64,000 bases of DNA from an uncultured Chloroflexia bacterium. Lineage in GTDB: Bacteria; Chloroflexota; Limnocylindria; Limnocylindrales; CSP1-4. Below are positions 6,094 to 62,271 of the stretch, in pieces (within the stretch, counting starts at the first letter, position 1; every line of letters begins with the position of its first letter). The stretch is taken from positions 1 through 64,000 of the forward strand of contig CAWHXD010000019.1 in assembly GCA_963833225.1 (NCBI GenBank), read 5' to 3'. Under the pieces are notes generated by a model, which was given only the letters and a program-made list of their open reading frames with translations, was not told where the DNA came from and did no database searches. The position numbers and the translations under genes are program-made.

Positions 6094-6208
6094 ATCGCCG
6101 ATCCGATGGTCCTGCCCCGCGATAGTCCTGCCGGGGCTGATCCGATCAGGTGGTGGGATCACCCGTGGAGCGTCCGTGGTGGCCCGTCGCTCGGGCGGGG
6201 CGCGGGGG

Positions 6209-8394: not shown

Positions 8395-8471
8395 GTCGCG
8401 AGGATAGCCGTCCACAGGGCATGGTGCCGGACGCGCCGGGGTCCTGGCGACCTCGCCTACACTTGCCCGCG

Positions 8472-10190: not shown

Positions 10191-10194
10191 GCCG

Positions 10195-10701: not shown

Positions 10702-10796
10702 CGCGACGGCCGTCGCCGCAACGAGCGCATTGGGGACGATCGGCCCTGCCACGAGCCCACCGCCAATCCGGCACCCCCGGCTAGACTCGGTCTGAC

Positions 10797-11240: not shown

Positions 11241-11242
11241 GC

Positions 11243-11905
11243 ATGCACGAGCGACGGCTCACGGGTGACGAGCTGCGTCTCCTGGGTGCGATGGGCCGTG
11301 GTCCCGACGGCCGCTCCACGGATGTCGACTCGGGCGGCGGTGCCCCCCGCTGGTTCCGCCGGTCGGTCAGGTTCTGCTCCAACTGCGGGTCGGAGCTGGT
11401 GGCCGGGATCCCGCCGACCGAGTATCGCGAGCGGATGACATGCCCTGGCTGCGGGTTCATCGCCTACGCCAACCCGCGGCTCGTGGTCACGACCATCCCG
11501 GTCACGGACGCCGGCGACGCCGTCCTGCTCCGGCGCGGCATCGAGCCCGGCCAGGGGCTGTGGGCGCAGCCCGGGGGGTTCCTGGAGATCGACGAGACGG
11601 TCTCGGAGGCGGCGATCCGGGAGACGCTCGAGGAGACTGGCCTGCTCGTGGCGCCCGGCGAGCTGGTGGGTCTCTACTCACGCCTCGAGGCCGCGGTCGT
11701 CACGCTCGTGTTCGAGGCACGGATCGTCGGTGGCGCGCCACGCGTCACGCCCGAGGCGCTGGAGGTCCGGGCGTTCGAAGCCGGCGCCATCCCGTGGGGC
11801 GAGATCGCGTTCAAGACGTCGTACTTCGCGCTGCGAGACTGGGTGGAGAAGCGACACCCGGGCACTCCGCTGCCGGACGCGTTCACCGGCCTTGAGCCCT
11901 TCTAG
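11243..11905 (+). CDS. Nudix hydrolase with N-terminal zinc ribbon
   Basis: FCSNCG...CPGCG; Nudix box [24 protein letters not shown]. Confidence 0.93.
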
Positions 11906-13737
11906 CCGGCGCCGTTGGGACCTGGGTCCCTGGGGCCTTGGCCCCTCTCGCCGGAACCCGCCGCCGGACCCAGGGTGGAGCCGCCGTCGGTCAGGCCGCC
12001 GTATGCGCGGCGCCGAAGGCCCGTGGTCACGGCCGTCTGCTCGGGACCCGAGACGCCCATCCGCGCGAGTGCCGCGCGCGCCAGCTCCAGGGCCGCCTCG
12101 AGCTCAGGGTCCGCGAGCCGCGCGACCCCCATCGCCCGCATCGCGCCGATCTCGGTCCGGCCGCGAGCCCGGGCCACGACCGTCAACCTGGGGTTCAACG
12201 CCCGGGCCCGCTCAACCGCGAGCTGTGCGGACATCGGGTCGCCGATCGCCACCACCAGGAGCCGCGCGCGCTCGAGGCCGGCTCGCAACAGGATGGCCCG
12301 GGCCGCGGCGTCGCCAAACAGGGTGGCTGCGCCCAGCTCCGCGACCTCGTCGAGCGCTCGCTGGTCACGGTCCACGACCACGCACCGGAAGCCGCGAGCG
12401 CGGACAGCCCGCACCACCACCTTCCCGACGCGCCCGGCGCCGAGCACCACGACGGCGAGACGGTCGTCGCCGACGGTCGCGGCGGTGAGCTCGCCGCGGA
12501 GCACGGGTCCCGCGCCCGGCTGCGGCGGGTCCACCTGGGTGGCCCGGTGCTCGATCCTGGTCGCAAGCGCAGCGGCTGTATTGACGAGCGGCGGCGTCAG
12601 CACGATCGAGAGCACCGCCGTCGCGAGCACCAGGTTGTAGCCCCGGGCGTCGACCAACCCCAGGCCGAGGGCCTGCTCGGCGATGAGAAAGGAGAACTCG
12701 CCGACCTGGGCGACGGTCGCCCCCAGGATAAGGGCGCTTCGCCACGGTAGCCCGAGCACGCGCGCCAGCAGCGCGCTCGCCACGGACTTCACGGCCATGG
12801 CCACCGCCAGCAGCGCGACCAGCGCCGGCCAGTCCGCGAGCAGCGCGGCCGGGTCGAGCAGCATGCCCACCGAGACGAAGAACAGGACGGCGAACAGGTC
12901 CCGGAACGGAAGGATCTCGCCCGCCGCCTGGTGCGAGAGGTCCGACTCGGACACGATGATCCCGGCCACGAACGCCCCTAGCGCGAGCGACAAGCCGAAC
13001 ACCGCGCTCGAGATGAACGCTGCCAGCAGGGCGGTGGCAAAGACCGAGAGCAGGAAGAGCTCGGGTGACCCGAGCCGGCTCACCGTCCGGAACAGCCACG
13101 GCAGCAGCCGCGTGCCGACGACGAACGCGAGCGCCAGGAAGGCCGCTGCCCGGACCAGCGCCAACAGCAGCGGCGCCGCCGATCCGCCACCGGCGAGCGG
13201 CTCCAGCATGGCCATCAGCACGATCGTGACCAGGTCCTGGACCACCATCCAGCCGATGGCCGCCCGCCCGTGCAGGCTGTCGAGAGCCCCGCGCGCGATC
13301 AGCAGCTTGAGCACGACGAGCGTGGAGCTGATCGCGATCGCGGAGCCGATGACCGCCGCCCCGGTGGGGGACAGGCCCAGAAGCACCGCGACGAGTGCGC
13401 CCGACACCGCCGTGATCGCCACCTGGATCAGCGCCCCGGGCACGGCCACCCGCCACACCCGGCGCAGCTCGTGAAGCGAGAACTCCACGCCCAGCGCGAA
13501 CAGCAGCAGGACCACGCCCAGCTCCGCCAGGCGGGAGATCTCCTCCTGGTTTCCCACGAACCCGGGGGTGAAAGGCCCGATCACCACACCCGCCGCGAGA
13601 TAGCCCACGATCGGCGGCTGGCCGAGGCGCGTGGCCACGGCCCCGCCGACCAGGGCCAGGGCGACCGCCACCCCGAGATCCAGGATGAACCGGAGCTCGG
13701 GAGTCAACGCGAGGTCGACCAGCGGCAGCGTGGGCAC
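11902..13737 (-). CDS. CPA2 cation:proton antiporter (Kef/YbaL-like) with TrkA-N domain
   Basis: GQPPIVGYL, LLLFALGVEFS, SSTLVV, QD motif, PFRDLFAVLFFVSVGM, QVGEFSF; GAGRVG nucleotide-binding motif. Confidence 0.92.
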   Translation of the reverse strand: MPTLPLVDLALTPELRFILDLGVAVALALVGGAVATRLGQPPIVGYLAAGVVIGPFTPGFVGNQEEISRLAELGVVLLLFALGVEFSLHELRRVWRVAVPGALIQVAITAVSGALVAVLLGLSPTGAAVIGSAIAISSTLVVLKLLIARGALDSLHGRAAIGWMVVQDLVTIVLMAMLEPLAGGGSAAPLLLALVRAAAFLALAFVVGTRLLPWLFRTVSRLGSPELFLLSVFATALLAAFISSAVFGLSLALGAFVAGIIVSESDLSHQAAGEILPFRDLFAVLFFVSVGMLLDPAALLADWPALVALLAVAMAVKSVASALLARVLGLPWRSALILGATVAQVGEFSFLIAEQALGLGLVDARGYNLVLATAVLSIVLTPPLVNTAAALATRIEHRATQVDPPQPGAGPVLRGELTAATVGDDRLAVVVLGAGRVGKVVVRAVRARGFRCVVVDRDQRALDEVAELGAATLFGDAAARAILLRAGLERARLLVVAIGDPMSAQLAVERARALNPRLTVVARARGRTEIGAMRAMGVARLADPELEAALELARAALARMGVSGPEQTAVTTGLRRRAYGGLTDGGSTLGPAAGSGERGQGPRDPGPNGAG

Positions 13738-13827
13738 GAACTCATTATCGAGGGGGCCGCCACGTCCCGGACGCGGCGTGCCGCTTCGCACGCGACGCCC
13801 GGCGTGCTCACCACTAGCATGCGCAGC

Positions 13828-14883
13828 ATGGAGTCCACGGCCAGGTCCCGGTCGCAACGGTCGCCGCGCGATCGGCTGCTCCACGCCATGACCGACACGA
13901 TCCGCGGTCGCCACCTCCAGATCTGGGTGATCGCCGTGGCCGGTGTCTCGGTGATCGGCGCCCTGGGCTACGTGGTCCTGTTCGGGTGGCCGCTCGGCGA
14001 CGCCCTGTACATGACCGTCCTGACCCTCACGACAGTGGGGTTCCACGAGGTCCGCGAGGTGGTCGGGTTCTGGGATCGGCTGTGGACGATGATCCTGGCG
14101 GTCGCTGGCGTCGGGATCATCTTCGGGACCATCGGCATCGTGGCCGAGACCATCATCAGCGATGCGGCGAGCGGCCGGCGAGAGGTGAAGCGGATGCAGG
14201 AGACCGTCGAGGCGCTGAGCGGCCACTACATCGTGTGCGGCTACGGCCGCGTGGGCTCGACCGTGATCAGCGAGCTGGTCCACACGGGGCAGCGGTTCGT
14301 CGTGATCGACATCAACGCCCCGTCACTGGATCGGGCCGCGGCCGACGGCCACCTGGTCGTGGTCGGTGACGCGACCGATGACGCAACCCTGATCCGGGCC
14401 GGCATCTCGCGGGCGCGCGGGCTCATCACCACCGTCGACTCGGACGCCAACAACGTCTACGTGACGCTTTCGGCGAGGGCGATGAACCCCGGGCTGTTCA
14501 TCGTCGCGCGCGCCAGCGCCGCCGGGGCCGAGGCGAAGCTCGTCCATGCCGGTGCCAACCGGATCGTGTCGCCCTACACGATGGCGGGCCGGCGAGCCGC
14601 GGAGCTCGCGACCCGCCCCCGGGTTGCCGACTACATCGACGCCGCGCTGTCGCACGGCAACCTGTCCTTCTCGCTCGAGGAGGTGGAGGTGGACGGTGAC
14701 AGCCCGCTGCTCGGCATCACCGTGGGGGACCTGCGGGCCGACGGGGCCGTAACCCTGGCGATCCTTCAGCCTGACGGCGCGTACGAGGCGAACCCGCCCG
14801 AGGGCCGCGCGATCCGGGTCGGGGAGAACCTGATCGTCTCGGGTACCACGCAGGCGCTCGCCGCCCTCCGGGCGCGCGCCTGA
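13828..14883 (+). CDS. MthK-like potassium channel with TrkA-N/TrkA-C (RCK) domains
   Basis: Filter TLTTVGF; HYIVCGYGRVG; GDAT; AGANRIVSPY. Confidence 0.92.
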   Translation: MESTARSRSQRSPRDRLLHAMTDTIRGRHLQIWVIAVAGVSVIGALGYVVLFGWPLGDALYMTVLTLTTVGFHEVREVVGFWDRLWTMILAVAGVGIIFGTIGIVAETIISDAASGRREVKRMQETVEALSGHYIVCGYGRVGSTVISELVHTGQRFVVIDINAPSLDRAAADGHLVVVGDATDDATLIRAGISRARGLITTVDSDANNVYVTLSARAMNPGLFIVARASAAGAEAKLVHAGANRIVSPYTMAGRRAAELATRPRVADYIDAALSHGNLSFSLEEVEVDGDSPLLGITVGDLRADGAVTLAILQPDGAYEANPPEGRAIRVGENLIVSGTTQALAALRARA

Positions 14884-39448: not shown

Positions 39449-40585
39449 TCAGCCCGTCGTGACGTTGACCTTGTTGACCCCTCCACGGACCTCGATCTCG
39501 AATCGGTCCAGGGAGGTCTCGGCGCCGGGACTGGCGATGCGCCCTCCGCTCCAGGCCGCCGCGCCATCGAGGGTCATCTTGCGGTACCCGCCCCTGACGG
39601 TGAGCACGACGGGCACGCCCGCCGGGCGGGTCACGAGCAAGTCGTTGGCCCCGCCCGCGATCACGATGGGCACGACCCCGGACGGGACCCCGAGCGTCAT
39701 GGCGACGCCGCCGCTCCCGCCGGCGAGGTCGAAGGCTGCGAGGCGGACCGCTCGCAGGTCCGCCGTGACCGAGGACGCACCGCCCCGCAGCTCCACGGTC
39801 CACGGCAGCGAGGCGTTGAGGACGAGCTCCGTGTGATCGCGCTTCCAGTGGGCCGAGGCGTTGAGGCGCTGATCGCCGATCCGTGCCTTCCAGTCGAACC
39901 AGGCAAACTTGGGGTAGCGGATCGTCACGACGCCATCGCGGGTCCGGGCGCTGGGTACGGCACCCGAGAACCGTGCGCGATAGAGCTCGGCCCCGAGGTC
40001 GGCACTGCCGCCGATGCTGACGGCCGGGGCGCCGGTCACGAACACGAGGCGACCAGCGGTCGCTGCCGCCACCGGCCCGGCGACCGACGCGGGCGCGGCC
40101 TCCGGCGTCTCGGGCCCGACAGCCGTCGTCTCGCCAGCCCCGTCACGCAGGGCGTCCACACAGGCAGCGAGGTAGCCCGAGATCCCGGCGAGCTCCTGGT
40201 CGCCGAGGCCGTCGAGCACTGCCATGGCCGCGCGGTCGACGGGATCCCAGGCGTGGAGCACCCCGGCAGAGCGATCCCCGACGACCTCGACGATGACCCG
40301 CCGCCGGTCCGCGGCATCCGCGACGCGGCGCACGAAGCCGGCCTGTTCTAGCCGGTCGACCAGGCGCGTGGTGGCGCCCGTGGTGAGCCCGGCAAGCTCA
40401 CCGATCCGGCCCACGGTCATCGGTCCCTCGACGCCGAGCAGGCGAAGGACGCTCACGTCGGTGCCGGCCAGGCCCATGCGCGTCGCCACTGCATCCCCGT
40501 AGGCGGCATGGCTCGCCCCCAGGTCGGCCGTCGCCCGCAGGATCGCGGCGCTCACGACATCTCGGTTGAATCCGGGGCTTGACAC
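39449..40585 (-). CDS. MarR-family regulator fused to a C-terminal beta-rich (LiaF/adhesin-like) domain
   Basis: GLTTGATTRLVDRLEQAGFVRR..DRRRV; C-terminal half has recurring Gly-Gly beta turns; GAGGAG ribosome-binding site. Confidence 0.85.
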   Translation of the reverse strand: MSSPGFNRDVVSAAILRATADLGASHAAYGDAVATRMGLAGTDVSVLRLLGVEGPMTVGRIGELAGLTTGATTRLVDRLEQAGFVRRVADAADRRRVIVEVVGDRSAGVLHAWDPVDRAAMAVLDGLGDQELAGISGYLAACVDALRDGAGETTAVGPETPEAAPASVAGPVAAATAGRLVFVTGAPAVSIGGSADLGAELYRARFSGAVPSARTRDGVVTIRYPKFAWFDWKARIGDQRLNASAHWKRDHTELVLNASLPWTVELRGGASSVTADLRAVRLAAFDLAGGSGGVAMTLGVPSGVVPIVIAGGANDLLVTRPAGVPVVLTVRGGYRKMTLDGAAAWSGGRIASPGAETSLDRFEIEVRGGVNKVNVTTG

Positions 40586-40608
40586 GGTAGCTCCTCGACA
40601 GGCTATTA

Positions 40609-40623
40609 TCTGCACAGCGCAGA
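40609..40623. promoter_or_regulatory. Putative MarR operator
   Basis: TCTGC-ACAGC-GCAGA palindrome in the divergent intergenic region, overlapping a GATAAT -10-like hexamer (minus strand). Confidence 0.5.
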
Positions 40624-40678
40624 GACATGCTAGCGCAGCCGATCACTCGGCGCAAGGCTACCCCAAGGAGGCCACACC

Positions 40679-40849
40679 GTGCACCTCAATCGTGAGCAGG
40701 CGGACATCGTCGCTCCCGGGATCTGGATCACGTTCCTGCTGATCCTGGGCTTCTTCGCCCGCCCGCTGCTCATCCCCGGCACCGTCGTCAGCACGTTCGT
40801 GCTCGGCATCTTCTACGCCGCGCGTGACGCGGCGGCGGGCCATGACTGA
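40679..40849 (+). CDS. Small 56-aa two-TM protein
   Basis: AAGGAGG site then GTG; MHLNREQADIVAPGIWITFLLILGFFARPLLIPGTVVSTFVLGIFYAARDAAAGHD; overlaps the ABC ATPase start. Confidence 0.72.
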   Translation: MHLNREQADIVAPGIWITFLLILGFFARPLLIPGTVVSTFVLGIFYAARDAAAGHD

Positions 40850-41819
40850 GCCCGTGCAGGTCACGACCGAGCCCGTGATCGATACCGTCAGCCTGCGGCG
40901 GACATTCGGCAAGCGCGGCGAGGTCGAGGCAGTCGCCGGCGTCGACCTCGAGGTTGCCGCCGGGTCGATCTTCGGCTTCCTCGGCCCGAACGGAGCGGGC
41001 AAGACCACGACCCTGCGGATCCTTGCCACGCTCCTCACACCCACGTCAGGGACCGCTCGTGTGATGGGCCATGACGTGGCCCGGGCGCCCGAGGATGTCC
41101 GCCGGCGCATCGGCTACGTGGCCCAGTCCGGCGGTTCCGATCCGCGGATGTCCGGGCGCGGCGAGCTCGTGATGCAGGGCCGTCTGTTTGGCCTGTCCGG
41201 GCGCCAAGCCCACGATCGTGCCCAGGAGCTGCTCGACCGGCTCGACCTCGCGGAGGCGGCCGACCGGGCGGTCGGCACCTATTCCGGCGGCATGCGCCGC
41301 CGTCTCGACGTCGGGATGGGCATGGTCCACCGACCCGGCCTGCTGTTCCTCGACGAGCCCACCACCGGTCTCGATCCCCAGGCCCGGGTGCGGATGTGGG
41401 ACGAGGTGCGGCGGCTGCGCGCGGGCGGCACCACCGTGTTCCTGACCACCCACTACCTCGAAGAGGCGGACGCGCTGTGCGACCGGCTCGCGATCATCGA
41501 CCATGGCCGGATCGTCGCCGAGGGGTCGGCGGACGAGCTCAAGCGGGCCGTCGCGGGCGACGTCGTCACGATCGGCACCGGCGCCAGCCCGGACCTCGTC
41601 GCCCGGCTGCTGGCCGAGGAGCCGTTCGTGCGCGAGGCGGGCGTCGCCGACGGCCTCGCCCGGATCTACGTCGACAATGCCGAGGCCAACCTGCCTGCCC
41701 TCCTGCGGCTGCTCGACGCGCACGGCCTCGCCCCCCAGTCGCTCGCCCTCAATCGGCCCAGCCTGGACGATGTCTTCCTGCGCCAGACCGGCCGGTCGCT
41801 GCGTGGTGAGGCCGCCTGA
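40842..41819 (+). CDS. DrrA-like ABC exporter ATP-binding subunit
   Basis: GPNGAGKT, YSGGMRRRL, LDEPTTGLDP, TTHYLEEA, PSLDDVFL. Confidence 0.94.
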   Translation: MTEPVQVTTEPVIDTVSLRRTFGKRGEVEAVAGVDLEVAAGSIFGFLGPNGAGKTTTLRILATLLTPTSGTARVMGHDVARAPEDVRRRIGYVAQSGGSDPRMSGRGELVMQGRLFGLSGRQAHDRAQELLDRLDLAEAADRAVGTYSGGMRRRLDVGMGMVHRPGLLFLDEPTTGLDPQARVRMWDEVRRLRAGGTTVFLTTHYLEEADALCDRLAIIDHGRIVAEGSADELKRAVAGDVVTIGTGASPDLVARLLAEEPFVREAGVADGLARIYVDNAEANLPALLRLLDAHGLAPQSLALNRPSLDDVFLRQTGRSLRGEAA

Positions 41820-41863
41820 CCGCCGACCTCGCCGAGCGACTTCCCACCGGAAAGGAAACCCAG

Positions 41864-42625
41864 ATGCGCTTGCTGTCCGATACCTGGATCATGTTCCGCC
41901 GATCGCTCGGCCTCAGCCTTCGCAACCCGCCCTGGTTGATCGTGGGGCTCATGCAGCCCCTGATCTACCTGATCCTGTTCGCGCCGATCCTGACCAACCT
42001 GACCAAGATGCCGGGCTTCCCGCCGGGCAACGCGTTCAACACCTTCGTTCCTGGCCTGCTGGTCATGACCGCAGGATTCGGAACGATGTTCGTGGGCTTC
42101 GCGTTCATCGACGAGATCCGGAACGGCGTCGTCGAGCGGATGCGCGTCACGCCCATGAGCCGCACTGCCGGGGTGCTCGGCAGAACCCTCCGGGACATCG
42201 TCGTATTCCTCGTCCAGGGGCTGATCCTGATCGGTGTCAGCATCCCGTTCGGACTCAACGTGGATCCGCTCGGTGTGCTCGTCGCGCTCGGCCTGCTGGC
42301 GCTGATCGGCCTCGGGCTTGGCCCACTTTCCTACGCCCTCGCCCTGACCGTCGGGAGCGAGGACACGCTTGGCCCGCTGGTCCAGGCCGTCGCGCTGCCG
42401 GTGCTGCTGCTGTCGGGGGTCCTGCTGCCGATGGCGCTCGCGCCGGACTGGCTCCGCACGATCGCGACGTTCAACCCGTTGTACCACGCGGTCGAGGCGA
42501 TGCGGGCGCTGTTCAACGCCGAGTTCTCCAGCGCTTCGATCGGGATCGGCATCGCCTGGATGGTCGCTCTTGCCGGCGCGTCGCTGGTGATCTCGGCCCG
42601 GGTGTTCAACCGGGCGACCGCCTGA
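41864..42625 (+). CDS. ABC-2 type permease (DrrB-like)
   Basis: About 6 TM; FVPGLL, ERMRVTP, NPLYHAVEAMRAL. Confidence 0.92.
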   Translation: MRLLSDTWIMFRRSLGLSLRNPPWLIVGLMQPLIYLILFAPILTNLTKMPGFPPGNAFNTFVPGLLVMTAGFGTMFVGFAFIDEIRNGVVERMRVTPMSRTAGVLGRTLRDIVVFLVQGLILIGVSIPFGLNVDPLGVLVALGLLALIGLGLGPLSYALALTVGSEDTLGPLVQAVALPVLLLSGVLLPMALAPDWLRTIATFNPLYHAVEAMRALFNAEFSSASIGIGIAWMVALAGASLVISARVFNRATA

Positions 42626-42716: not shown

Positions 42717-43838
42717 ATGCGCATCCGCGACTTCGGCGTCGAGATCTGGATGAACCGGTGGGAGACCCGGTGCCGGTACAACCTGGCCGAGACCTGCGTG
42801 GACTCGGTCACGGTCGAGGAGCTGCTGGAGCTCGCCGGGATGGACGGCACTGCGCTCGTGAATCGGCTCGCCTCGATGCGCCTCGATTACGGGCCTATCG
42901 AGGGCTCCGGCCGGCTGCGGATCGCGGTCGCCGGGCTGTACGAGACGGTCGGGCCGGAGCACGTCCTCGTGACCCACGGTGCCATTGGCGCAAATGCCCT
43001 CGCCTACCAGGCGCTCGTCGAGCCGGGCGACGTGGTCGTGCCGATCGTGCCCACGTACCAGCAGCACACCTCGATCGCGGAGAGCCTGGGGGCCGACGTC
43101 CGCCCGCTTCGCCTGCGGGAGGAGGACGCCTGGCTCCCGGATATCGACGAGCTGCGGCGCATCGCCCGCCGGGCGAAGGTGATCGCGATCGTCAATCCGA
43201 ACAACCCCACCGGATCGCTGCTCGACGAGCCACGTCTGGCCGCGATCGTGGATATCGCGAGGGAGGCCGGCGCCTGGCTCATCGCGGACGAGGTCTACCG
43301 CGGCATCGACCAGGTGGGCGACGGGACCTCGCCGTCCTTCGTGGACTCGTACGAGCGCACGGTCGGCATCGGGAGCATGTCCAAGGCGTTCTCGCTGGCT
43401 GGGCTCCGCCTGGGCTGGATCGTGGCGCCGCGCGAGATCCTCGAGGCCGTGAGCCGCCACCGCGACTACTCCGTGATCAGCGTGGGCCAGGTGGACGACC
43501 TGCTGGCGTCGATCGCGCTCGAGGCCAAGGGCGCCCTGCTCGCCCGCAACCGGGAGATCGTGCGCCGCAACCTGGTGATCCTGGATGCCTGGGTCGCCGG
43601 CGAGCCGCGGATCGACTACGTGCGGCCGGCAGCCGGCACGACGGCCCTGCTCCGCTACGCGGCGGACGTGCCGTCCGAGGGCCTGTGCGTCCGCCTGCTG
43701 GAGACCGAAGGCGTGATGCTGACCCCCGGCAGCGCCCTCGACATGGAGGGCTACCTGCGCATCGGGTTCGCCAACGAGACACCCGTGCTCCAGGCTGGCC
43801 TGGAGCGGTTCTCAGCATTCCTGGCGACGCTCGGCTGA
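42717..43838 (+). CDS. Class I/II PLP-dependent aminotransferase
   Basis: NPNNPTG, ADEVY, SMSKAFSLAGLRLGW. Confidence 0.93.
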   Translation: MRIRDFGVEIWMNRWETRCRYNLAETCVDSVTVEELLELAGMDGTALVNRLASMRLDYGPIEGSGRLRIAVAGLYETVGPEHVLVTHGAIGANALAYQALVEPGDVVVPIVPTYQQHTSIAESLGADVRPLRLREEDAWLPDIDELRRIARRAKVIAIVNPNNPTGSLLDEPRLAAIVDIAREAGAWLIADEVYRGIDQVGDGTSPSFVDSYERTVGIGSMSKAFSLAGLRLGWIVAPREILEAVSRHRDYSVISVGQVDDLLASIALEAKGALLARNREIVRRNLVILDAWVAGEPRIDYVRPAAGTTALLRYAADVPSEGLCVRLLETEGVMLTPGSALDMEGYLRIGFANETPVLQAGLERFSAFLATLG

Positions 43839-43935: not shown

Positions 43936-44889
43936 ATGACCGGTCGGGAAGACCCGACGACCCCGGGCGAGAGCGCCTACGTCGGCCCCTCGGGCGGCTT
44001 TGAACAGTCGCTGGTGGACCGGCTCTACGAGGGCGTCTACTACGTCGACCTCGGGCGCCGGATCCGGTACTGGAACCCCGGCGCCGAGAGGCTGTCCGGC
44101 TTCGCCGCCGACGAGGTGGTCGGCCGGTACTGCCACGACAACCTCCTCGACCACGTGGATGCTGCCGGCCGCTCCCTGTGCCGAAGCGGCTGTCCTCTCG
44201 CCGCCACCATGCGTGACGGCCAGGCGCGCGATGCGGAGGTCTTCCTGCGGCATCGCAAGGGTCACCGCGTCCCGATCCGGGTTCGTGCTAACGCCGTCCT
44301 CGACCGGGAGGGCAAGGTCATCGGCGCCGTGGAGGTGTTCGACGACCAGGGCGACCTCACGGCAGCCCGGGTCGAGCTGTCCGACCTGCGGGATCTCGCC
44401 ATGACGGATGCGCTCACGGGCATCCCGAACCGGCGCCATTTCGAGATGTCGATCGCGTCGCGGATCGCCGAGTTCGCGGGGTACGGCCGTGACTTCGGGC
44501 TCCTGGTCGCCGACATCGACTGGTTCAAGACCCTCAACGACACCTATGGCCACGCCGCCGGGGACGTGGCCCTGCGGACGGTGGCCCAGACGATGCTTGC
44601 CGCGTCGCGGACGTCCGACGACCTTGCCCGGTTCGGAGGCGAGGAGTTCGTCCTGACGATCGTGGAGATCGACCCGGCCGGTCTTCTCGCCGTTGCCGAG
44701 CGCATGCGCCTGCAGGTCGCCCGGTCCAGCGTTCGGGCGGACGGCAACGATCTGAGCGTGACGATCTCGATCGGCGGCACGATGGCGGTACCGGGAGACA
44801 CCGCCGAGACGGTGTTCGCGCGCGCCGACGCCGCCATGTACCGGGCGAAGGACGGTGGGCGCAACCGGGTGGAGATCGACGTTCCCTGA
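43936..44889 (+). CDS. PAS-GGDEF diguanylate cyclase
   Basis: PAS (WNPGAERLSGF); DALTGIPNRR, DIDWFK, GHAAGD, RTSD I-site, RFGGEEF. Confidence 0.93.
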   Translation: MTGREDPTTPGESAYVGPSGGFEQSLVDRLYEGVYYVDLGRRIRYWNPGAERLSGFAADEVVGRYCHDNLLDHVDAAGRSLCRSGCPLAATMRDGQARDAEVFLRHRKGHRVPIRVRANAVLDREGKVIGAVEVFDDQGDLTAARVELSDLRDLAMTDALTGIPNRRHFEMSIASRIAEFAGYGRDFGLLVADIDWFKTLNDTYGHAAGDVALRTVAQTMLAASRTSDDLARFGGEEFVLTIVEIDPAGLLAVAERMRLQVARSSVRADGNDLSVTISIGGTMAVPGDTAETVFARADAAMYRAKDGGRNRVEIDVP

Positions 44890-44908
44890 TCGCTGCCGTG
44901 CCCGCGCG

Positions 44909-47900
44909 TCACGCCGCGGCGGTCGTCACCTCCGGCTTCGCGTCGCGGCGCCCCGCGCCTGCCGAGTACGCGAGCGTGACGAGCACGCCGACGAGGCCGA
45001 AGGCCGCGAGCACCGCAGCGTCCACCGCCGGCATGGACCCGCCGCCCGTGATCGCGCCCCGGAAGGCGTCGACGGCGTAGGTCAATGGCAGCAGCGGGTG
45101 CAGCGCGGCGAGCGGCCCGGGCACGGCGGCCGTGCCGAGCGGGATGCCGGCGGCCGCCACCTGGAGGGCCAGGAGGAGCAGCGCCAGCAGCCAGCCGCGG
45201 CTGCCGAGCAGCGCGACCAGCGCCTGTACCAGCGCGGCGAACACGAGCGCGGCGAGGACCGCGAACGCGACCAGCGAGCCGAGCTGGACCACGTCGAGGC
45301 CGAGCAGGAGCCGGATCCCGCCCACCATGAGCAGGGCACCGGCGACCGCCACCGCGGCGGCGGCCGCGGACGCGATCAGCACCGGGCGCCACCATCGCCG
45401 GTCGTCGCGGCCCCAGAGAGCCGGAAGGACCAGGAACGCCGCGAGCGCTCCGAGCCAGGTCGCCAGCGCCATCAGGAACGGGGCGAGCCCGCTGCCCGGT
45501 CCGGCGTCGGGGCTGGCGCGGGTGGCATCGACCGTCACGGGGTCCGCCGCGAGGGCGCCCACGCGGGAGCGCTCGTCGTCGGAGTACGCGGCCGTGCCAT
45601 CAGCCGAGGTTTGAAGCCCTTTCGAGAGCGCATCGGCCTTGTCGGCGAGCGCGCTGCCGTCGTCCGCGAGGCCCTTTGCCTGCGCTTCGACGAGCGAGCC
45701 GGCGTCGACGGCCGTCTGCATCGAGTCGGTGAGGTCGCCCAGGCCGCCGACCGCGTCGGCCGTCCCGGTGGCCAGGGCCCTGGCCCCGTTCGACGAGAGC
45801 TTGGCGCCGCCGGCCAGCGCGTCCGCGCCGCCGGCCAGGTCGTCGAGCCCCGAAGCCAGGCCAGACGCACCCGACGCCACGCCCACGGCACCGTCGGCCA
45901 GCTGGGTCACTCCGTCAGCGAGCGCGGGCATCCCGTCGGCCAGCTGGCGGGTGCCGGCGGCGAGCTGGGCTGCCCCTGCGTCGAGCTGGGTGGCGCCGAG
46001 CGCGAGGTCCGCGGCTCCACCGGACGCGTCGGCGATCCCCGTCTCGAGCGGGGCCAGGCCGGCGGCGAGCAGCGCCGTGCCGTCCCGCAGGTCCGTGGCG
46101 CCGGCCTGGAGATCCGAGGCGCCGGCGGCGAGCCCCGCGGTCGCCCCGGCGAGGTCGCTGGCGCCGGAGGCGGTGCCGTTCGCGGCAGCCACCAGCGGAG
46201 TCCCCTGGGTGGCGAGGTCGTCGAGAGCGGCGCAGATGGCGGGCGTGCCCCCCATCCCCGCACACGCGGCGGCGAGCGCGGCGACGCCGTCGACATAGTC
46301 GGAGACGCCCGCGGCGAGCTGGCCCGCGCCCGCGGCAAGGCTGGACGCGCCGGCATCGGCCTGGTCCACGCCGTCCGAGAGGGCCACCGCGCCGGCACGG
46401 AGATCGGCCGCTCCATCGGCGAGGGCCTGGGCCTGGGCGCCGAGGCCCGTCGTCTGGGTCTTCATGAGCGCGAGGCCATCGGCCAGCTGGCTCGCCCCGT
46501 CCGCCACACCGGCGGCCCCGAGCGCGACCCCATCGGCGCCGTCGGCGAGGGCGCTCGCCTGGGCGGGGAGGGCAGTGGTCTGCTGGTCGAGGGCCGCCAG
46601 CCCGTCCGAGAGCCCCGATGCCCCATCGGCGAGCAGCGCGGCACCATCGGCCGAGGCGTGGGCGCCGCGCGCGAGCTTGCGGGCACCGACCTTGAGCTCG
46701 GCCGCCCCATCCGCGAGCTTGCGGGTCCCTTTGACCAGCTCGTCAGTGCCGCCCGACGCGCTACCGGCCTGATCGATGAACTCCTGGAGCCCGCCCACGA
46801 GCTGGCCCGCGAATGCCTCCGTCCCCGCCGCGTTGTCGGCGAGGCTGGTCGTGGAGGTGGCAACCGAGGCGGCGTCGTCGGCGGCCGTCGTGAGGGTGTC
46901 ATGGGCCTGGGACACCGACAGCAGCACGCCGTCCACGTAGGAGGACGTGAGCTCGTTGACGGTCGCGGTCCCGATCGCGGCCGTGACCTCGCGGGCAACG
47001 GTGCCCAGCGCATCCCCGGCGCCGTCGCCGGTGACCAGCTGCAGCGTGGCCCTGGGGGCCGAGCCGGACGTGTCGGCCCAGATGGCGGCCACGGTTCGCG
47101 AGAAGTCGGCCGGGATCGTGAGGACCGCCGCGTACCGTCCGTTTTCGAGGCCCGCCCCGGCCTCCGCCTCGTCGGTTGCCAGCCAGGTGAAGCCGCCGTC
47201 GCCCGCGGTCGTCGTGAGCGCCTCGGACAGGTCCGCGCCCAGCGTCAGGGTGTCGGTCGAGCCGTCGGCGGCGGGCACGGACCCGCCCTGGTCGAGGTCC
47301 ACGACGGCTGCCCGCACGGTGTCGAGGTTGCCCGCGGACGCGCCGAGCGACCACGTGAGCAGCCCGGCCACGGTGAGGGGCACGAGCACGACCAGACCCA
47401 GGGCGGCGGCGAGCCGCCCACGCGACAGGCGCGCGGTGGCGGTCCCCGCCACGCCCGCCACCATCGCCCCCGCCCCGGCGGGAACGAGCGGTACGCGCCC
47501 GAGAGCGCCGGTGAAGGCAGCCCCGGACGGCCACCAGGCCCGGTCACCGGCAAGGGTCGTGATCGCCGGCACCAGGATCGAGCGGACGACGAACGTGTCG
47601 ATGAGCACGCCGATGGCCACGGCGACGCCCACCTGGAACAGGACGATCAAGGGGGCCGTGGCCATCGACCCGAACGTGCCGGCGAGGATCAGGCCGGCGG
47701 ACGTGATGACGGCGCCGGTGTGACCGGACGCGATCCGGATTCCGTCCTTGAGGGAGCGGTGCTCGCTCTCCTCGCGGACCCGGCTCATCAGGAAGATGTT
47801 GTAGTCGGACCCGAGCGCCACCAGCAGCACGAACACCATCAGCGGCAGATAGAACGAGATGCCCGGGTGCCCCATGACGTCCTGGAACAGGAACGCCGAC

Positions 47901-50407
47901 AGGCCGACCGCGGACCCGTAGGAGACCAGGACGGTGGCCACCAGGTACAGCGGGGCCACGATCGAGCGGAGCAGCAGCACGAGCACCACGAGGATGCCCA
48001 TGACCGTGATGATGCCCACCCGATTGAAGTCGGTCGACAGGGTGTCCTGGACGTCGGCGAACTGGGCCGTCGGACCGCCGAGGGTGGCGGCGGCCGAGGC
48101 TCCGAACGCCGGCGCACTCGCGGCCAGCACGTCCTGGGTATCGCGCACGATGGCAAACGCGCCGCCCGAGTACGGGTCGTTGGAGCTGGTGACGTAGAAG
48201 CGGGTCGCCGAGCGGTCCCGGGACACGAACGCGTCGATCGCGTCGCGCAGCTTGTCCGCGTCCTCGCCCGTGAGCGTGGTCGGGATCCAGATGTCATCGG
48301 GTCGGGTCGCGAAGACCGCCCCCAGGGCCCGGTACTGGTCCGGCAGCGCGCCGAACGTGTCCTCGGCCTCCCGCTTGAGCTCCTTGGCGCTCGGCGTGCC
48401 GGCCAGGCTCTGCGGGGAGAGCGTGGCGTCTGGGCGGCCATCGAAGTGGTCCGCCAGCGCGTTGAACGAGTCCGCGAGGTCGAGCGCGGCGGAGATCGAT
48501 CCGTCCTTCTCGAGCGAGCGGGCCGCCTTCACCCCGTCCTTCCAGGGACCCAGCGAGCGGACCTCCGGGTAGGCGTCGGCGAGCTCGGCGAGGTAATCGC
48601 TCATCAGCGTGTCGGTGGACCCGTCCTCTCCGCTCGAGCTGCCCGCGGCCGCCGACGGTGACGTGATCGATGAGGCGAGGGTCCGCAGCTGGGTGGGCAG
48701 GACCGCGTTGGTCCGGACGCGCTCGACGATGTCCTGCGCGTGGGCGATGCCGCTCTTGAGCTCCCGCATGGCGGTGCCCGCGGCGACGTCCGGGAACGCC
48801 GTGCCCAGTCCGTTCACGTAGGCGAGCGCGCTGTCCAGGCCGTCCGAGACCTCGGGGTCGAGCAGCGATGCGGAATCGGAGCCGGTGGTCCCGCTGTCGC
48901 CGTCCATCTTGTCGGCGATCGTCTGCAGCTGGACGGAGGGCTGGAAGCCGTCGGGGACCACGCCGTCCCCGTCGGGGGTCACGAGGCTGGTCACGGTCGC
49001 CACGCCCGGCGTGTTGCCGAGGGTGATCATGAGGTCGCGGAACTTCGCGAGCTGCCCGGGCGCGAGCATGTCGCCGCCGCCACCCGCATCGACGAGCCCG
49101 GTCGACTGGACGAGCTTGTCTTCGCCCAGGGACTTCGCGATGGCCTCGTACCCGATGCGTGAATCGGCGTCGGCGGGCAGCTCCGAGAGGACGTCGAAGT
49201 TGGTCTTGACCTGGGGCAGGAAGCCAGCCGGGACCAGGAGCGCGACCAGGAGGCCGACCGCGACGATCCCCGGATGGTGGGAGACCCCCGAGGCGAGGCG
49301 GGCGAAGAAGCCTCCGGGCTCACCCTCAGGACGGGGGCGGGTGTGCAAGGGCCAGAACAGGTAGTGCCCGAAGATGGACAGCATCGCCGGAGCCAGGGTC
49401 AGGCCGGCGATGAGGGTCACGAAGATGGCGACCGCGATCGCGGGTCCCGTGGAGCTGATCATCTGGAACTCGCCGAAGGCCATCGAGGCCATGCCCACGA
49501 TCACGGTGGCCGCGCTGGCCGTGATCACCGCGCCGATGCGCTTGACAGTGGTCCGCGCGGCATCGTGCCAGTCGCCACCGCCGGAGACCTCCTCGCGATA
49601 GCGGCTGATCAGGAAGATCGCGTAGTCGGTCCCAACCCCGAACACCATCACGACCAAAAACGTGTCCAGGAGCGAGGACACCTGCCAGCCCAGCGAGGCC
49701 AGGAGCCCGAGGAGGCCGCGAGAGACCACGAACGCCGACCCGATGGTCACCAGCGGCACGAGCGCGGCCAGCGGCGCGCGGTAGATGAGGAGCAGAACCA
49801 CCAGGACCAGCAGGACGGTCACCGCAGTCGTGCTGTCGGTGCCCGCCTTGACCGCCTCGAGGTAGTCGGCGCTGATCGCGGCGGACCCGGTCACGTGGGC
49901 CTCCAGGCCCGCCGGCGTGGTCGCCGCGAGGTGGTCGCGGAGCTCGCGGACCACGGTGCTCGCGGCATCACCGGCATTCTCGACATCGAGGTTGACGACG
50001 ACCATCTCGAACTGGCCATCATCGCTGCGAAGCATGGATTCCAGCTCGGGGCGCGAGTCCGCGGTCTCGGTACCGGTGGCGGCCGTCCGCAGCTCGGGCG
50101 GAGCGTCGGCGCTCATCGTCCACGCCGCGAAGGCATCGCGGAACGCGCGGTCCGCGTCGGTGAGGCCGCCGGGGCGCTCGAAGGTGATCGTGGCCGACGA
50201 TGCCGACGTGCTGCCCGGGAAGGCGCGCTCCAGCTCGTCGCGGGCCTGGACCGACGGTGCCGAGGGCGGCAGGAACGAGGCCTGGTCCGTGGAGCCGGAC
50301 CCCGCCAGCGACGGCGCCAGGGTCGCGCACGCAACCCCGCCGACGATCCACGCGGCCACGATCAGGAAGCGGAAGCGGTAGGTCCAGGAGCCCAGTCGCT
50401 CGAACAT
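44909..50407 (-). CDS. MMPL-family RND transporter fused to a YhgE/Pip-like membrane protein (1832 aa)
   Basis: MMPL motifs FGVGTDYAIFLISRYREE, LVALGSDYNIFLMSRVREE, DTFVVRSILVPA; then Pip-type AAVVDLDQG, YAAVLTIPADFS, LADGA heptads, GLAPF, PLLPLTYAVDAFR. Confidence 0.88.
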   Translation of the reverse strand: MFERLGSWTYRFRFLIVAAWIVGGVACATLAPSLAGSGSTDQASFLPPSAPSVQARDELERAFPGSTSASSATITFERPGGLTDADRAFRDAFAAWTMSADAPPELRTAATGTETADSRPELESMLRSDDGQFEMVVVNLDVENAGDAASTVVRELRDHLAATTPAGLEAHVTGSAAISADYLEAVKAGTDSTTAVTVLLVLVVLLLIYRAPLAALVPLVTIGSAFVVSRGLLGLLASLGWQVSSLLDTFLVVMVFGVGTDYAIFLISRYREEVSGGGDWHDAARTTVKRIGAVITASAATVIVGMASMAFGEFQMISSTGPAIAVAIFVTLIAGLTLAPAMLSIFGHYLFWPLHTRPRPEGEPGGFFARLASGVSHHPGIVAVGLLVALLVPAGFLPQVKTNFDVLSELPADADSRIGYEAIAKSLGEDKLVQSTGLVDAGGGGDMLAPGQLAKFRDLMITLGNTPGVATVTSLVTPDGDGVVPDGFQPSVQLQTIADKMDGDSGTTGSDSASLLDPEVSDGLDSALAYVNGLGTAFPDVAAGTAMRELKSGIAHAQDIVERVRTNAVLPTQLRTLASSITSPSAAAGSSSGEDGSTDTLMSDYLAELADAYPEVRSLGPWKDGVKAARSLEKDGSISAALDLADSFNALADHFDGRPDATLSPQSLAGTPSAKELKREAEDTFGALPDQYRALGAVFATRPDDIWIPTTLTGEDADKLRDAIDAFVSRDRSATRFYVTSSNDPYSGGAFAIVRDTQDVLAASAPAFGASAAATLGGPTAQFADVQDTLSTDFNRVGIITVMGILVVLVLLLRSIVAPLYLVATVLVSYGSAVGLSAFLFQDVMGHPGISFYLPLMVFVLLVALGSDYNIFLMSRVREESEHRSLKDGIRIASGHTGAVITSAGLILAGTFGSMATAPLIVLFQVGVAVAIGVLIDTFVVRSILVPAITTLAGDRAWWPSGAAFTGALGRVPLVPAGAGAMVAGVAGTATARLSRGRLAAALGLVVLVPLTVAGLLTWSLGASAGNLDTVRAAVVDLDQGGSVPAADGSTDTLTLGADLSEALTTTAGDGGFTWLATDEAEAGAGLENGRYAAVLTIPADFSRTVAAIWADTSGSAPRATLQLVTGDGAGDALGTVAREVTAAIGTATVNELTSSYVDGVLLSVSQAHDTLTTAADDAASVATSTTSLADNAAGTEAFAGQLVGGLQEFIDQAGSASGGTDELVKGTRKLADGAAELKVGARKLARGAHASADGAALLADGASGLSDGLAALDQQTTALPAQASALADGADGVALGAAGVADGASQLADGLALMKTQTTGLGAQAQALADGAADLRAGAVALSDGVDQADAGASSLAAGAGQLAAGVSDYVDGVAALAAACAGMGGTPAICAALDDLATQGTPLVAAANGTASGASDLAGATAGLAAGASDLQAGATDLRDGTALLAAGLAPLETGIADASGGAADLALGATQLDAGAAQLAAGTRQLADGMPALADGVTQLADGAVGVASGASGLASGLDDLAGGADALAGGAKLSSNGARALATGTADAVGGLGDLTDSMQTAVDAGSLVEAQAKGLADDGSALADKADALSKGLQTSADGTAAYSDDERSRVGALAADPVTVDATRASPDAGPGSGLAPFLMALATWLGALAAFLVLPALWGRDDRRWWRPVLIASAAAAAVAVAGALLMVGGIRLLLGLDVVQLGSLVAFAVLAALVFAALVQALVALLGSRGWLLALLLLALQVAAAGIPLGTAAVPGPLAALHPLLPLTYAVDAFRGAITGGGSMPAVDAAVLAAFGLVGVLVTLAYSAGAGRRDAKPEVTTAAA

Positions 50408-50497: not shown

Positions 50498-50547
50498 GAT
50501 ACGAAGGCGCATTCGATACGTCAATGTATCGAATACGGGTGTGTATC
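50498..50547. promoter_or_regulatory. Triple TetR-type operator array
   Basis: Three GATAC-N6-GTATC-like units at 17-bp period; the central one extends to ATTCGATAC-N6-GTATCGAAT. Confidence 0.75.
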
Positions 50548-50569
50548 ACAGGTGGGAGGTCCGGTGCGG

Positions 50570-51385
50570 ATGGGCCGGGAGCAGCGACCGGGGGACTGGG
50601 CGGCCTGGATGACGGGCCGAGCGGTGACGCCCCAGACCCCTGCGTCCGGTGCCGAGCCCGCTTCCGGCGGTGCGCCCACGCCCGAACCTGCGCCCACGGT
50701 CCCCATGCCCGCGTCCGACCCCGACCCCGACCTCCACGCGGACACCACGCGAACGCCTCGGCGCGAGGCCACCCGCCAACGAGTGCTGGACGCCGCCCTG
50801 GAGGTGTTTGCCGAGCGAGGGGTCATCGGCGGGACGGTGGAGGACATCTGCGAGCGCGCCGGCTTTACCCGCGGCGCGTTCTACTCCAACTTCGCCGACC
50901 GGGAGGACGTCATCGACGCCCTCGTGGAGCGCGAACAGAACCGGCTGCTCGACGGAGTGGACGCGATGTTCACCGATGTCGAGGACGAGATCGCGGCCGC
51001 GCCGGATCTGGGGGCCGCGCTCCGGGCGATCATCGGCCAGGTCCTCCAGGCGGTGCCCATCGACCGGGAGCTGTCCCTGATCCAGGCCGAGCTCGAGAAC
51101 TTCGCGATCCGGCGCCCGGATCTCGCGGGACGGTTCGTGGCCAGCAACGAGCGGTTCCGCCAGCGGATCACTGCCTTCATCTCGGACGCGATGCAGCGCC
51201 ACGGTCGGGAGCTCCTCGTCGAGCCCTCGATCCTCACCGACGCGATCATCGCGATCACCCAGCGGAGCGTCCGGCGGGCGCTCCTCGAGGGCGGTGACGC
51301 GGACCCCAACGAGATGGCCGGCGCCATCCTGCCCGGGCTGCTCCTGGCCTTCTCGAGGCGGGCCGTCGGCGCCACGGGCACGTAA
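50570..51385 (+). CDS. TetR-family regulator (start uncertain)
   Basis: TRQRVLDAALEVF..TVEDICERAGFTRGAFYSNF; divergent from the MMPL fusion. Confidence 0.92.
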   Translation: MGREQRPGDWAAWMTGRAVTPQTPASGAEPASGGAPTPEPAPTVPMPASDPDPDLHADTTRTPRREATRQRVLDAALEVFAERGVIGGTVEDICERAGFTRGAFYSNFADREDVIDALVEREQNRLLDGVDAMFTDVEDEIAAAPDLGAALRAIIGQVLQAVPIDRELSLIQAELENFAIRRPDLAGRFVASNERFRQRITAFISDAMQRHGRELLVEPSILTDAIIAITQRSVRRALLEGGDADPNEMAGAILPGLLLAFSRRAVGATGT

Positions 51386-61206: not shown

Positions 61207-62271
61207 ATGCACGGTCGTCGTCGGATCATTGCCCCCATCGTCCTGGTGCTCGTCCTGGTCGCGGCGGGCGTCACCTGGTCCCTCAACCAGCCCACGGCCG
61301 CCGCCGACGGGTCGCTCACGGCCTCGGGGACCATCGAGGCGACGACGGTCGTCATCAGCCCCGAGATCGCGGGCCGGGCGATCGAGGTCTCGGTGGCCGA
61401 GGGCGACGCCGTTGCCGAGGGCGACGTCCTCGTTCGCCTCGATCCGGGTCTGCTTGACGCGCAGCAGGGTCAGGCCGATGCCGCCGTGGCCCAGGCAACG
61501 GCCGTCTTCGCGCAGGCCGAGGCCGGGGTGGCTGCCGCGCAGGCGAACCTCGACCTGCTCAAGGCCGGCCCGTCGTCGGCGCAACTCAATGTCGCCCAGC
61601 GCCAGGTCGACCAGGCCGTGACGGCCTGGAAGGTGGCTCGCAAGGCGTACAAGGATCTCTCGAAGGCGGAGAAGAACACCCCGGCCGGCAGCGCCGCGAA
61701 GGCGCAGCGGGACAACGCGGAGGCGGCGATCGCCACCGCCCGGGCGCAGTACCGGCTGATCGCATCGGGCGCCCGCGCGGAGCAGGTCTCGGCCGCCGAG
61801 GCGCAGCTCGCGGCCGCCGAGGCGCAGCTGTCGGCCGCACGCGCCCAGCAGGATTCGGCCGCGGCCGCCGTGACGGTGCTGGATGCCCAGCGGGCGAAGC
61901 TCACCCTCGTGGCCCCATCCGCGGGCACCGTCCTGTCCCGGGCCGTTGAGCCGGGCGAGACCGTCGTCCCCGGCGGCGCGCTCCTGGAGCTCGGCGACCT
62001 GGATCGCCTCACCCTCACGGTCTACGTGCCGGAGGATCGCCTGGGCGAGGTCCTGGTCGGGCAGGCGGTGTCGATCTCCGTGGACTCGTTCCCCGGTGAG
62101 ACCTTCCGGGGGGCCGTGACCCGGATCGCGGACCAGGCGGAGTTCACGCCCCGCAACGTGCAGACCGTCGAGGGCCGCAAGACCACCGTGTTCGCGATCA
62201 AGCTTGCCCTCGAGGCCTCGGGCGGCAAGCTCAAGCCGGGCATGCCCGCCGACGTCGTCTTCGGGTCATGA
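61207..62271 (+). CDS. HlyD-family membrane fusion protein (YbhG-like)
   Basis: ASGTIEA, EGD.V, coiled coil, AEFTPRNVQT, LKPGMPADV. Confidence 0.92.
   Translation: MHGRRRIIAPIVLVLVLVAAGVTWSLNQPTAAADGSLTASGTIEATTVVISPEIAGRAIEVSVAEGDAVAEGDVLVRLDPGLLDAQQGQADAAVAQATAVFAQAEAGVAAAQANLDLLKAGPSSAQLNVAQRQVDQAVTAWKVARKAYKDLSKAEKNTPAGSAAKAQRDNAEAAIATARAQYRLIASGARAEQVSAAEAQLAAAEAQLSAARAQQDSAAAAVTVLDAQRAKLTLVAPSAGTVLSRAVEPGETVVPGGALLELGDLDRLTLTVYVPEDRLGEVLVGQAVSISVDSFPGETFRGAVTRIADQAEFTPRNVQTVEGRKTTVFAIKLALEASGGKLKPGMPADVVFGS

Follow-up and report, generated by a model that had tools for sequence, protein, structure and literature searches.

The window analysed here, meaning the whole stretch of 64,000 nucleotides from an uncultured Chloroflexia bacterium (contig CAWHXD010000019.1 of assembly GCA_963833225.1), carries at 44909..50407 on the (-) strand one gene in which an MMPL transporter continues in frame into a complete YhgE/Pip protein. 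The fusion is genuine. The gene is a single ATG-started frame of 1832 codons and a stop, with GAGGAGAGG lying a few bases 5' of its start, and the same frame is kept in relatives; its 1832-residue product is referred to as P0001. We tentatively propose, as a reading that falls a little short of probable, that this TetR-controlled gene encodes a single polypeptide with 18 transmembrane (TM) segments, which would act as one export machine with a wall-crossing stalk built from several chains.

YhgE/Pip proteins are widespread, yet known only as phage receptors or, in the case of EsaA, as an ill-understood part of a secretion system, and it is likewise poorly understood how MmpL-type pumps move their cargo past the membrane; a testable link between such pumps and Pip is provided by the fusion and by independent unions in Actinomycetota and Lactobacillus. 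Both modules are already known and their records are public under generic names; what is new is their combination and the link that it suggests. Literature searches (YhgE, MMPL, phage infection protein, TIGRFAM numbers, ABC-2), which did not extend to supplements, found no description of the MMPL-Pip architecture.

Domain architecture of the fused protein

Pfam MMPL (PF03176) matched P0001 in two stretches with 396.1 bits against a gathering score of 20.5, which places the protein within that family. The NCBIfam actII model (TIGR00833) aligned over residues 11-960 with 514.1 bits, below its curated cut-off of 874.7; judged by these scores, the MMPL half is a relative of the actII subfamily that lies outside it by NCBI's cut-off. 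Towards the C-terminus, pip_yhgE_Nterm (TIGR03061) aligned over 999-1161 with 80.8 bits, and despite this score below the cut-off of 96.15 the domain aligns with 50 relatives. The xxxLxxG heptad model scored 42.3 bits (cut-off 18.6) and pip_yhgE_Cterm (TIGR03062), over 1620-1814, passed its cut-off of 102.2 with 118.5 bits.

A hydropathy scan gave 12 + 1 + 5 TM segments, in the order of 12 MMPL segments, a 42-residue Ala/Gly/Pro-rich stretch, one segment at 996-1025, an outside part of 614 residues and a final group of five. The xxxLxxG stalk lies, as in Pip proteins, between one N-terminal TM segment and a C-terminal TM bundle. With the end of the MMPL half and the start of the Pip half both cytoplasmic, an 18-TM topology is consistent. 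Domain matches, TM scan and structural model agree with the initial annotation, which had described a full MMPL with both GxDY motifs and a large helical insertion, followed by a Pip-type part with an N-terminal TM segment, a long heptad stalk and a multi-TM C-terminus; for the latter part the agreement comes from the TIGR matches, the scan and the model.

Conservation of the fusion

The G+C content of the window DNA is 70-78%, at which long spurious frames are common, so that an open frame alone is weak proof of a gene. A 1268-residue antisense open reading frame at 44855-48661 illustrates how wrong frames stay open, and this, with an internal ATG at 47462-47464, would be the case for an artefact of assembly or gene calling in which two adjacent genes are read as one. 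However, the junction recurs in one frame well beyond the window. A database search centred on it (residues 850-1250) listed 119 other proteins, 70 of which are 1500 residues or longer and align over 96% or more of that region with 52-82% identity; those that carry a name are recorded as 'MMPL family transporter' or 'YhgE/Pip family protein', from metagenome-assembled genomes (MAGs) of Candidatus Limnocylindrales or Chloroflexota. MMPL and Pip lie in one stop-free frame across the junction in 13 of 24 genomes of the same genus, the remainder comprising one fragmentary case, one genome with an MMPL-only relative and nine with a distant paralogue only. In addition, contigs from two metagenome runs (X1 and X3) bridge the junction or reach across it with nothing more than point changes and a 9-base in-frame deletion, placed in both within the tether at window 47445.

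Because the frame is conserved across the junction in independent genomes and in metagenome contigs, chance and assembly error are excluded, and an artefact, already refuted by these counts, retains next to no probability. The single in-frame fusion put forward in the initial annotation was borne out in this way, with sequence support at the junction itself. A stop and restart there had been named as the sign of two separate genes; none was seen in these 13 genomes, and the internal ATG (M982), the sole methionine within residues 940-1000, is not conserved, being absent for example in homologues P0004 and P0007. For window 46900-48100, no sequencing run contained more than 0.18 of its words, and no RNA run was among those listed; the runs with small shares were salt marsh, soil and sediment metagenomes and are not taken as evidence of habitat.

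Fused forms were found in one genus only among the genomes sampled here. The fused gene was present in none of 16 genomes of the neighbouring family, and across a sample of the phylum (400 other genomes, 217 genera) the Pip half was matched at E <= 1e-30 only in two more genomes of the same genus. In a quick maximum-likelihood phylogeny of the MMPL part (43 rows), all 22 fused rows grouped in one fully supported (100*) clade of 24. The two short rows in it come from incomplete records, one labelled 'partial' by NCBI and breaking off within the tether, the other with a tail that looks frameshifted. We saw no split form in this clade, whose sisters are unfused MMPLs with short low-complexity tails; the simplest reading would be a single fusion event in one lineage.

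Some irregular copies were also noted. The copy in genome G013 (L022) lacks MMPL residues ~262-496 and carries a stop, and is probably a decaying copy or an assembly error; the same probably applies to a second copy in G014 (L021, G014:C25), with frame shifts near residues 894 and 970-978 and an end at Pip residue ~1477. Homologues P0003, P0054, P0065 and P0100 have Arg-rich nonsense tails or middles, their lengths (up to 2298 aa) being inflated because a frameshifted reading stays open in high-G+C DNA. The MMPL-only relative (L020 in G005, 6027-9092, (-) strand; 1021 aa, 48% identical, same sequence as P0108) has neither Pip nor TetR beside it, branches outside the fused clade and, as in the window, is followed by a GGDEF gene downstream.

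The MMPL half and its tether

The MMPL module, whose type is resistance-nodulation-division (RND), spans residues 1-953 (47549..50407, (-)). Pfam and NCBIfam matches, the TM scan and the model delimit 12 TM segments with two large outside loops, PD1 (36-194) and PD2 (402-790), the organisation expected of an MMPL and one reflected in fold matches to MmpL5, MmpL4 and MmpL3. Alignment located a GTDY motif in TM4 (residues 259-262; 49622..49633, (-)) and a GSDY motif in TM10 (residues 866-869; 47801..47812, (-)). The pairs D261/Y262 and D868/Y869 are invariant across 43 aligned MMPLs, and we take them to be the proton-relay pairs known from studies of MmpL3.

In a PDB sequence search, MmpL5 and MmpL4 were the best matches of the MMPL half (E ~5e-76), with MmpL3 far behind (1e-27). 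The AlphaFold2 model of this half had a mean predicted local distance difference test (pLDDT) of 83.3 and a predicted template-modelling score (pTM) of 0.72, and Foldseek matched it to structures of MmpL5 and MmpL4 (9mvz_D, E 2e-45; 9b46, template-modelling score TMt 0.90, root-mean-square deviation (rmsd) 4.3). The mycobacterial siderophore and drug exporters MmpL5/MmpL4-MmpS5/MmpS4 are the best match in both sequence and fold, sharing 12 TM segments, the Asp-Tyr motifs and a PD2 insertion with P0001. In an excerpt of the MmpL5 study (PMC12501195), the coiled coil of PD2 has 196 residues and a disulfide at its tip and is required for efflux, the coiled coils of the trimer are modelled as a six-helix tube of 13 nm, and MmpS5 is needed for trimerisation; the tube is reported not to be long enough to span the wall, with a partner still sought. 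As far as that excerpt goes, a repressor-controlled gene and a helical hairpin whose tip bears a Cys pair are further points of likeness.

The two differ within PD2 and in their setting. Where MmpL5 has its coiled-coil insert, the PD2 of P0001 (48038..49204, (-)) has a helical insertion of ~230 residues (~486-715), which in the model is split into about eight helices, none longer than 29 residues. No long antiparallel coiled coil of the MmpL4/5 kind was found in this model; the long Cys-tipped hairpin of P0001 is instead in the separate, C-terminally fused Pip. The host lacks an outer-membrane signature, unlike that of MmpL5, and MmpS (PF05423) had no match in the 86%-complete genome, a negative that weighs little given that the control matched 0 of 14 genomes.

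The cytoplasmic tether, rich in Ala, Gly and Pro, covers residues 954-995 (47423..47548, (-)) and ends Arg-rich (RLSRGR) before the first TM segment of Pip. Residues 962-995 were modelled at pLDDT <50 and the identity in the tether is 0.43. In 23 of 24 fused homologues, 66-157 aa separate the WWP motif at the end of TM12 from the AAVVN motif of the Pip ectodomain; the remaining value of 30 is a likely mis-hit of the pattern. The model and these values fit a flexible, cytoplasmic tether, and the 9-base deletion in the metagenome contigs fits a linker of variable length and low complexity.

A variable and disordered tether would also be found in a functionally neutral fusion, that is, two independent proteins joined by the loss of a stop codon, with Pip keeping some role of its own and being used by phages as a receptor. 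The patchy distribution of the gene within the genus speaks for this, as does the faster evolution of the Pip part, which has 0.39-0.59 identity vs 0.59-0.82 for the MMPL part; Pip and YueB are, moreover, known phage receptors (EsaA preprint, in excerpt). We nevertheless consider a neutral fusion improbable, as the whole frame is kept among proteins only 52-60% identical at the junction, no split form occurs within the fused clade, and MMPL and stalk are united in three different forms across three phyla, as described below.

The Pip half

The 848-residue Pip half was modelled with pLDDT 76.9 and pTM 0.50. Its first TM segment (residues 996-1025; 47333..47422, (-); TM scan and model) leads into a membrane-proximal alpha/beta domain (residues 1031-1126; 47030..47317, (-)), defined by TIGR03061 and modelled at pLDDT 86-96, for which Foldseek returned 3cni, a domain of an ABC type-2 transporter (TMt 0.51). 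A helical hairpin stalk follows (residues 1133-1621; 45545..47011, (-)), recognised from its L-A-x-G-A-x-x heptads and the model, in which helices ascend over ~1133-1381, turn in a short tip loop and descend over ~1389-1621, before a strand rejoins the alpha/beta domain.

The L..G heptads keep their register over two runs, 1203-1364 and 1426-1545, and their consensus in 24 fused homologues is L, A, small-polar, G, A/T/V/L, variable, Q/A/G. With g-a-d-e assigned to G, A/T/V/L, L and A, small or hydrophobic residues occupy four of the seven positions, and each stalk helix would thus present two faces. The only two cysteines of the ectodomain, C1382-x9-C1392 (46232..46264, (-)), flank the tip and may form a disulfide; a spaced Cys pair is also present in the consensus of standalone Pips and in the actinobacterial protein P0283 described below. 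If each residue adds 1.5 A, arms of ~240 residues could give the stalk a length of up to about 35 nm.

VIA-align matched the stalk to PrgA (6z9l; Z 17.2, rmsd 12.4, 332 aligned residues) and Foldseek added hairpins of chemoreceptors (methyl-accepting chemotaxis proteins, MCPs). Among the best 60 of 112 matches of a PDB sequence search with the Pip profile there were only coiled-coil look-alikes (myosin, MCP and designed barrels such as 8qae) and no EsaA. EsaA was likewise not among the Foldseek and VIA-align matches listed for the 848-residue model, which is no evidence of a difference.

Known YhgE/Pip proteins (Lactococcus Pip, Enterococcus PIP and B. subtilis YhgE) share with P0001 the N- and C-terminal domains, the heptad stalk, the 1+5 arrangement of TM segments and a TetR gene alongside. 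They are standalone proteins of about 600-1000 aa, with phage receptor as their only assigned role, whereas in P0001 an RND pump precedes the N-terminus of Pip in the same chain. EsaA/YueB of type VIIb secretion gave a weak N-terminal match and, in the excerpted part of the EsaA preprint, has an elongated 'there and back again' ectodomain thought to cross the wall; unlike P0001, its stalk contains a beta domain and its dimer has been solved, again according to that excerpt. Membership of P0001 in the EsaA family was rejected, since the EsaA model (TIGR03929) scored 31.2 bits against a cut-off of 122 and no EssC above cut-off was found in the genome, where the best match, on another contig, had 113 bits vs a cut-off of 778.

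The C-terminal five-TM bundle (residues 1640-1819; 44951..45490, (-)), covered by TIGR03062, is of the ABCG/ABC-2 type. VIA-align matched it to ABCG25, ABCG1, ABCG2, ABCG5/8 and ABCH-9C (Z 15-16.6, rmsd 2.5-3.0 A over 181-189 residues), and Foldseek to KpsM, Wzm, TarG and ABCG5/8. Pfam ABC2_membrane_3 scored 27.4 bits, below its gathering score of 31.6, and hhalign against the DrrB-like permease of the window was weakly positive (prob 54.7%, E 1.2e-4). On the strength of the model, the membrane part of Pip appears to have an ABCG-like fold.

MMPL-Pip unions in other bacteria

At E <= 0.001 the YhgE/Pip family counts 5,243 representatives. Of the best 150 matches, at least five belong to the fused family, and nearly all others are standalone, of about 450-1,040 aa, or fragments. 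In 101 genomes of the same taxonomic class as an Actinomycetaceae MAG with a standalone Pip, the C-terminal Pip domain was over cut-off in 15, always in frames of 270-1,021 aa. Five unpublished genomes (G451, G460, G468, G472 and G479), with no positive locus among them, are included in this denominator and in that of 201 used below.

Gene neighbourhoods reaching about 10 kb to either side were examined at 17 loci of standalone actinobacterial Pips. One of them, L058, had an MMPL gene within this distance, which does not sustain the statement of the initial annotation that MMPL and YhgE genes are often neighbours. An ABC ATPase directly upstream was commoner, at 10 of the 17 loci (L047-L053, L055, L058 and L060), and a TetR gene lay within about 1 kb at 11. 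Together with the ABCG-like fold of the bundle, the upstream ATPases suggest that many Pips are membrane parts of ABC machines.

TetR-MMPL(-ATPase-like)-Pip operons were found in 4 of 201 actinomycete genomes (L058 in G510, L081, L082 and L083), in the last three of them on one strand. At L058, one frame (11777-14698, (-)) combines an MmpL3-like MMPL with an ABC ATPase-like domain (residues ~730-942); the stop of this frame and the start of the YhgE/Pip gene (9699-11777, (-)) overlap, and the TetR gene is divergent. The ATPase-like domain has a Walker A motif; inspected by eye, its signature is atypical, and so is the residue that follows Walker B.

Such arrangements raise the question of whether the Pip of P0001 is a second transporter of the ABC-2/ABCG kind, with its ATPase encoded elsewhere and the fusion coupling two steps, for example flipping followed by extraction. 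Its bundle fold (Z 15-16.6), the ATPases upstream of standalone Pips and the union of an MMPL with a nucleotide-binding domain upstream of Pip in G510 all point in this direction, as does TCDB, which in an excerpt of PMC3924187 places the PIP family near ABC-2, with ABC-2 homologues. Examined as an ABC-2/ABCG exporter, however, P0001 has the bundle fold and no ATPase domain, and neither its 42-residue tether nor the longer tethers of homologues contain one. The ATPase of a DrrA/DrrB pair 3 kb from the fused gene was rejected as a partner, having a permease of its own and being syntenic in 0 of 6 relatives (12 kb downstream); because of this lack of synteny, an ATP-driven Pip is unsupported at the window locus. 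We regard a second transporter as decidedly improbable.

Direct unions of an MMPL with a stalk were also found outside the Chloroflexota. Pfam MMPL (PF03176) was present in 87 of 88 proteins of 1,212-3,460 aa related to one actinobacterial Pip, a set that includes the Chloroflexota family. P0283 (Actinomycetaceae, 1478 aa) is colinear with P0001 across the junction (28% identity, E 2e-59) and, like P0282 from the same family, also named 'MMPL family transporter', has its MMPL in frame with Pip TM1, Pip_N and a Cys-tipped heptad stalk. Unlike P0001, these two have an MmpL3-like MMPL without the large PD2 insert, one C-terminal TM segment rather than five, and no TIGR03062 match. In Lactobacillus acidophilus and L. 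gasseri, single-membrane bacteria, actII-type MMPLs of about 1,230 aa (P0304 and P0313) contain ~500 residues of xxxLxxG heptads. Here the stalk is inserted within the MMPL, in P0304 at about residues 500-1010 of PD2, the site of the MmpL5 coiled-coil tube, and, in contrast to P0001, Pip domains and extra TM segments are absent. By their sequences, MMPL-stalk unions appear to recur in three forms and three phyla. Since those of Actinomycetota and Lactobacillus are independent of the Chloroflexota fusion, the modules likely work together.

A model of the stalk assembly

The complex model comprised three copies of residues 1290-1505, in three runs with three controls, and was scored by ipSAE. 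Of 30 solved pairs of one chain, 20 reached the mark used for this score, as did 1 of 23 single chains; the mark was calibrated on two copies and not on three, and a pass counts as support and not as proof. The three-copy stalk gave an ipSAE of 0.87 (runs 0.87, 0.88 and 0.87) vs 0.00 for the best control, with a partner pLDDT of at least 91 and at least 97% agreement of contacts between runs. In the scored copy, the ascending arm touches one neighbour and the descending arm the other, as would be the case in a ring of three hairpins, and the modelled contacts fit a six-helix assembly.

An assembly of this kind need not conduct anything. The modules might co-operate with the stalk serving as a scaffold, which would oligomerise the pump in place of MmpS and anchor or space it in the wall or a surface layer, the substrate being freed at the outer leaflet. 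The small Gly/Ala core would suit tight packing, the stalk resembles hairpins of PrgA and MCPs, which are not channels, and P0283 retains its stalk with a single C-terminal TM segment. The missing MmpS match, weak as it is with a silent control, would agree with such a role, given that in the excerpt of PMC12501195 MmpL5 trimerisation depends on MmpS5. Against it, the heptads of the Lactobacillus MMPLs sit at the exact site of the proposed MmpL5 tube, and the contacts in the three-copy model are ring-like. We consider a scaffold unlikely, although of all the alternatives to an export stalk it deserves the most attention.

Proposed mechanism of export

Returning to the export machine proposed at the outset, we infer that the modules co-operate, that the stalk is oligomeric and that an export path leads along it. 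The MmpL4/5-type module would use the proton gradient through the Asp-Tyr pairs of TM4 and TM10 and extract a hydrophobic or amphiphilic substrate from the membrane. The disordered cytoplasmic tether would join this pump to the complete YhgE/Pip and hold the ABCG-like TM bundle beside it. Cys-tipped hairpin stalks from several chains could then bundle into a multi-helix assembly crossing the wall of a cell without an outer membrane, and this assembly would guide or carry the substrate outward, taking the place of the PD2 tube of MmpL5 and of MmpS. A conduit role for the stalk, as suggested in the initial annotation, is plausible and unproven.

The monoderm host assumed in that annotation agrees with our searches, in which Omp85 (BamA) and OEP/TolC (PF02321) had no match in the 86%-complete genome and the controls matched 7 of 14 genomes (7 diderms). 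The tripartite AcrAB-TolC system resembles P0001 by analogy only, in that a long helical structure prolongs the RND pump beyond the membrane in both. Unlike AcrAB-TolC, P0001 has no OEP/TolC or Omp85 counterpart in its genome and no adaptor gene beside the pump, and its stalk is anchored in the membrane of the pump itself.

Several observations weigh against a trimeric, conducting stalk. ABCG-type bundles act as dimers, which would favour two chains over three. EsaA also acts as a dimer, according to the excerpt of the EsaA preprint. The complex score was calibrated on pairs, coiled coils in general may score high in such models, and Gly or Ala at three of the four core positions may indicate a bundle that is tightly packed rather than hollow. 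The long, variable and disordered tether is as expected of a loose fusion, and the genomic partner found upstream of most standalone Pips is an ABC ATPase. The fused gene is dispensable within the genus, since it is missing from 9 of 24 genomes and one holds an MMPL-only relative, and no biosynthetic cluster lies near it, the neighbouring genes being housekeeping or regulatory and giving no hint of a substrate.

A broader version, which we judge distinctly unlikely, is that YhgE/Pip stalks at large are wall-crossing helical tubes of three Cys-tipped hairpins and six helices, through which MMPL pumps would deliver lipids or drugs to the surface of monoderms. If true, the MmpL5 tube, the PD2 heptads of Lactobacillus, the actinobacterial MMPL-Pip operons and the Chloroflexota fusion would be versions of one device, and the 'phage infection proteins' would have export across the wall as their cellular job. 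Tractable models are available in the Lactobacillus MMPLs, whose stalk is built in, and in the actinomycete operons.

Regulator and neighbouring genes

A TetR-family regulator gene (50552..51385, (+); Pfam TetR_N, 2.2e-12), which probably starts later than 50552, diverges from the fused gene. A divergent TetR gene adjoins the fused gene at 13 of 13 loci in relatives, which upholds TetR control as the genomic setting described in the initial annotation. Between the two genes, at 50498..50547, lies a 22-nt imperfect inverted repeat with the core ATTCGATAC-n6-GTATCGAAT, a candidate operator; its exact core was absent from 59 other loci, a search that did not include mismatched versions.

At window 39449-42625, a MarR-family gene on the (-) strand is followed by the DrrA-like ABC ATPase and DrrB-like ABC-2 permease genes on the (+) strand, a separate putative drug exporter. 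A gene for an HlyD-family membrane-fusion protein is located at window 61207-62271 (+), in a genome with neither a TolC-family nor an Omp85 match. Downstream of the fused gene, at window 42717-43838 (+), a class I/II aminotransferase gene was found, which occurs again at this place in 3 of 6 relatives (G008, G006 and G014).

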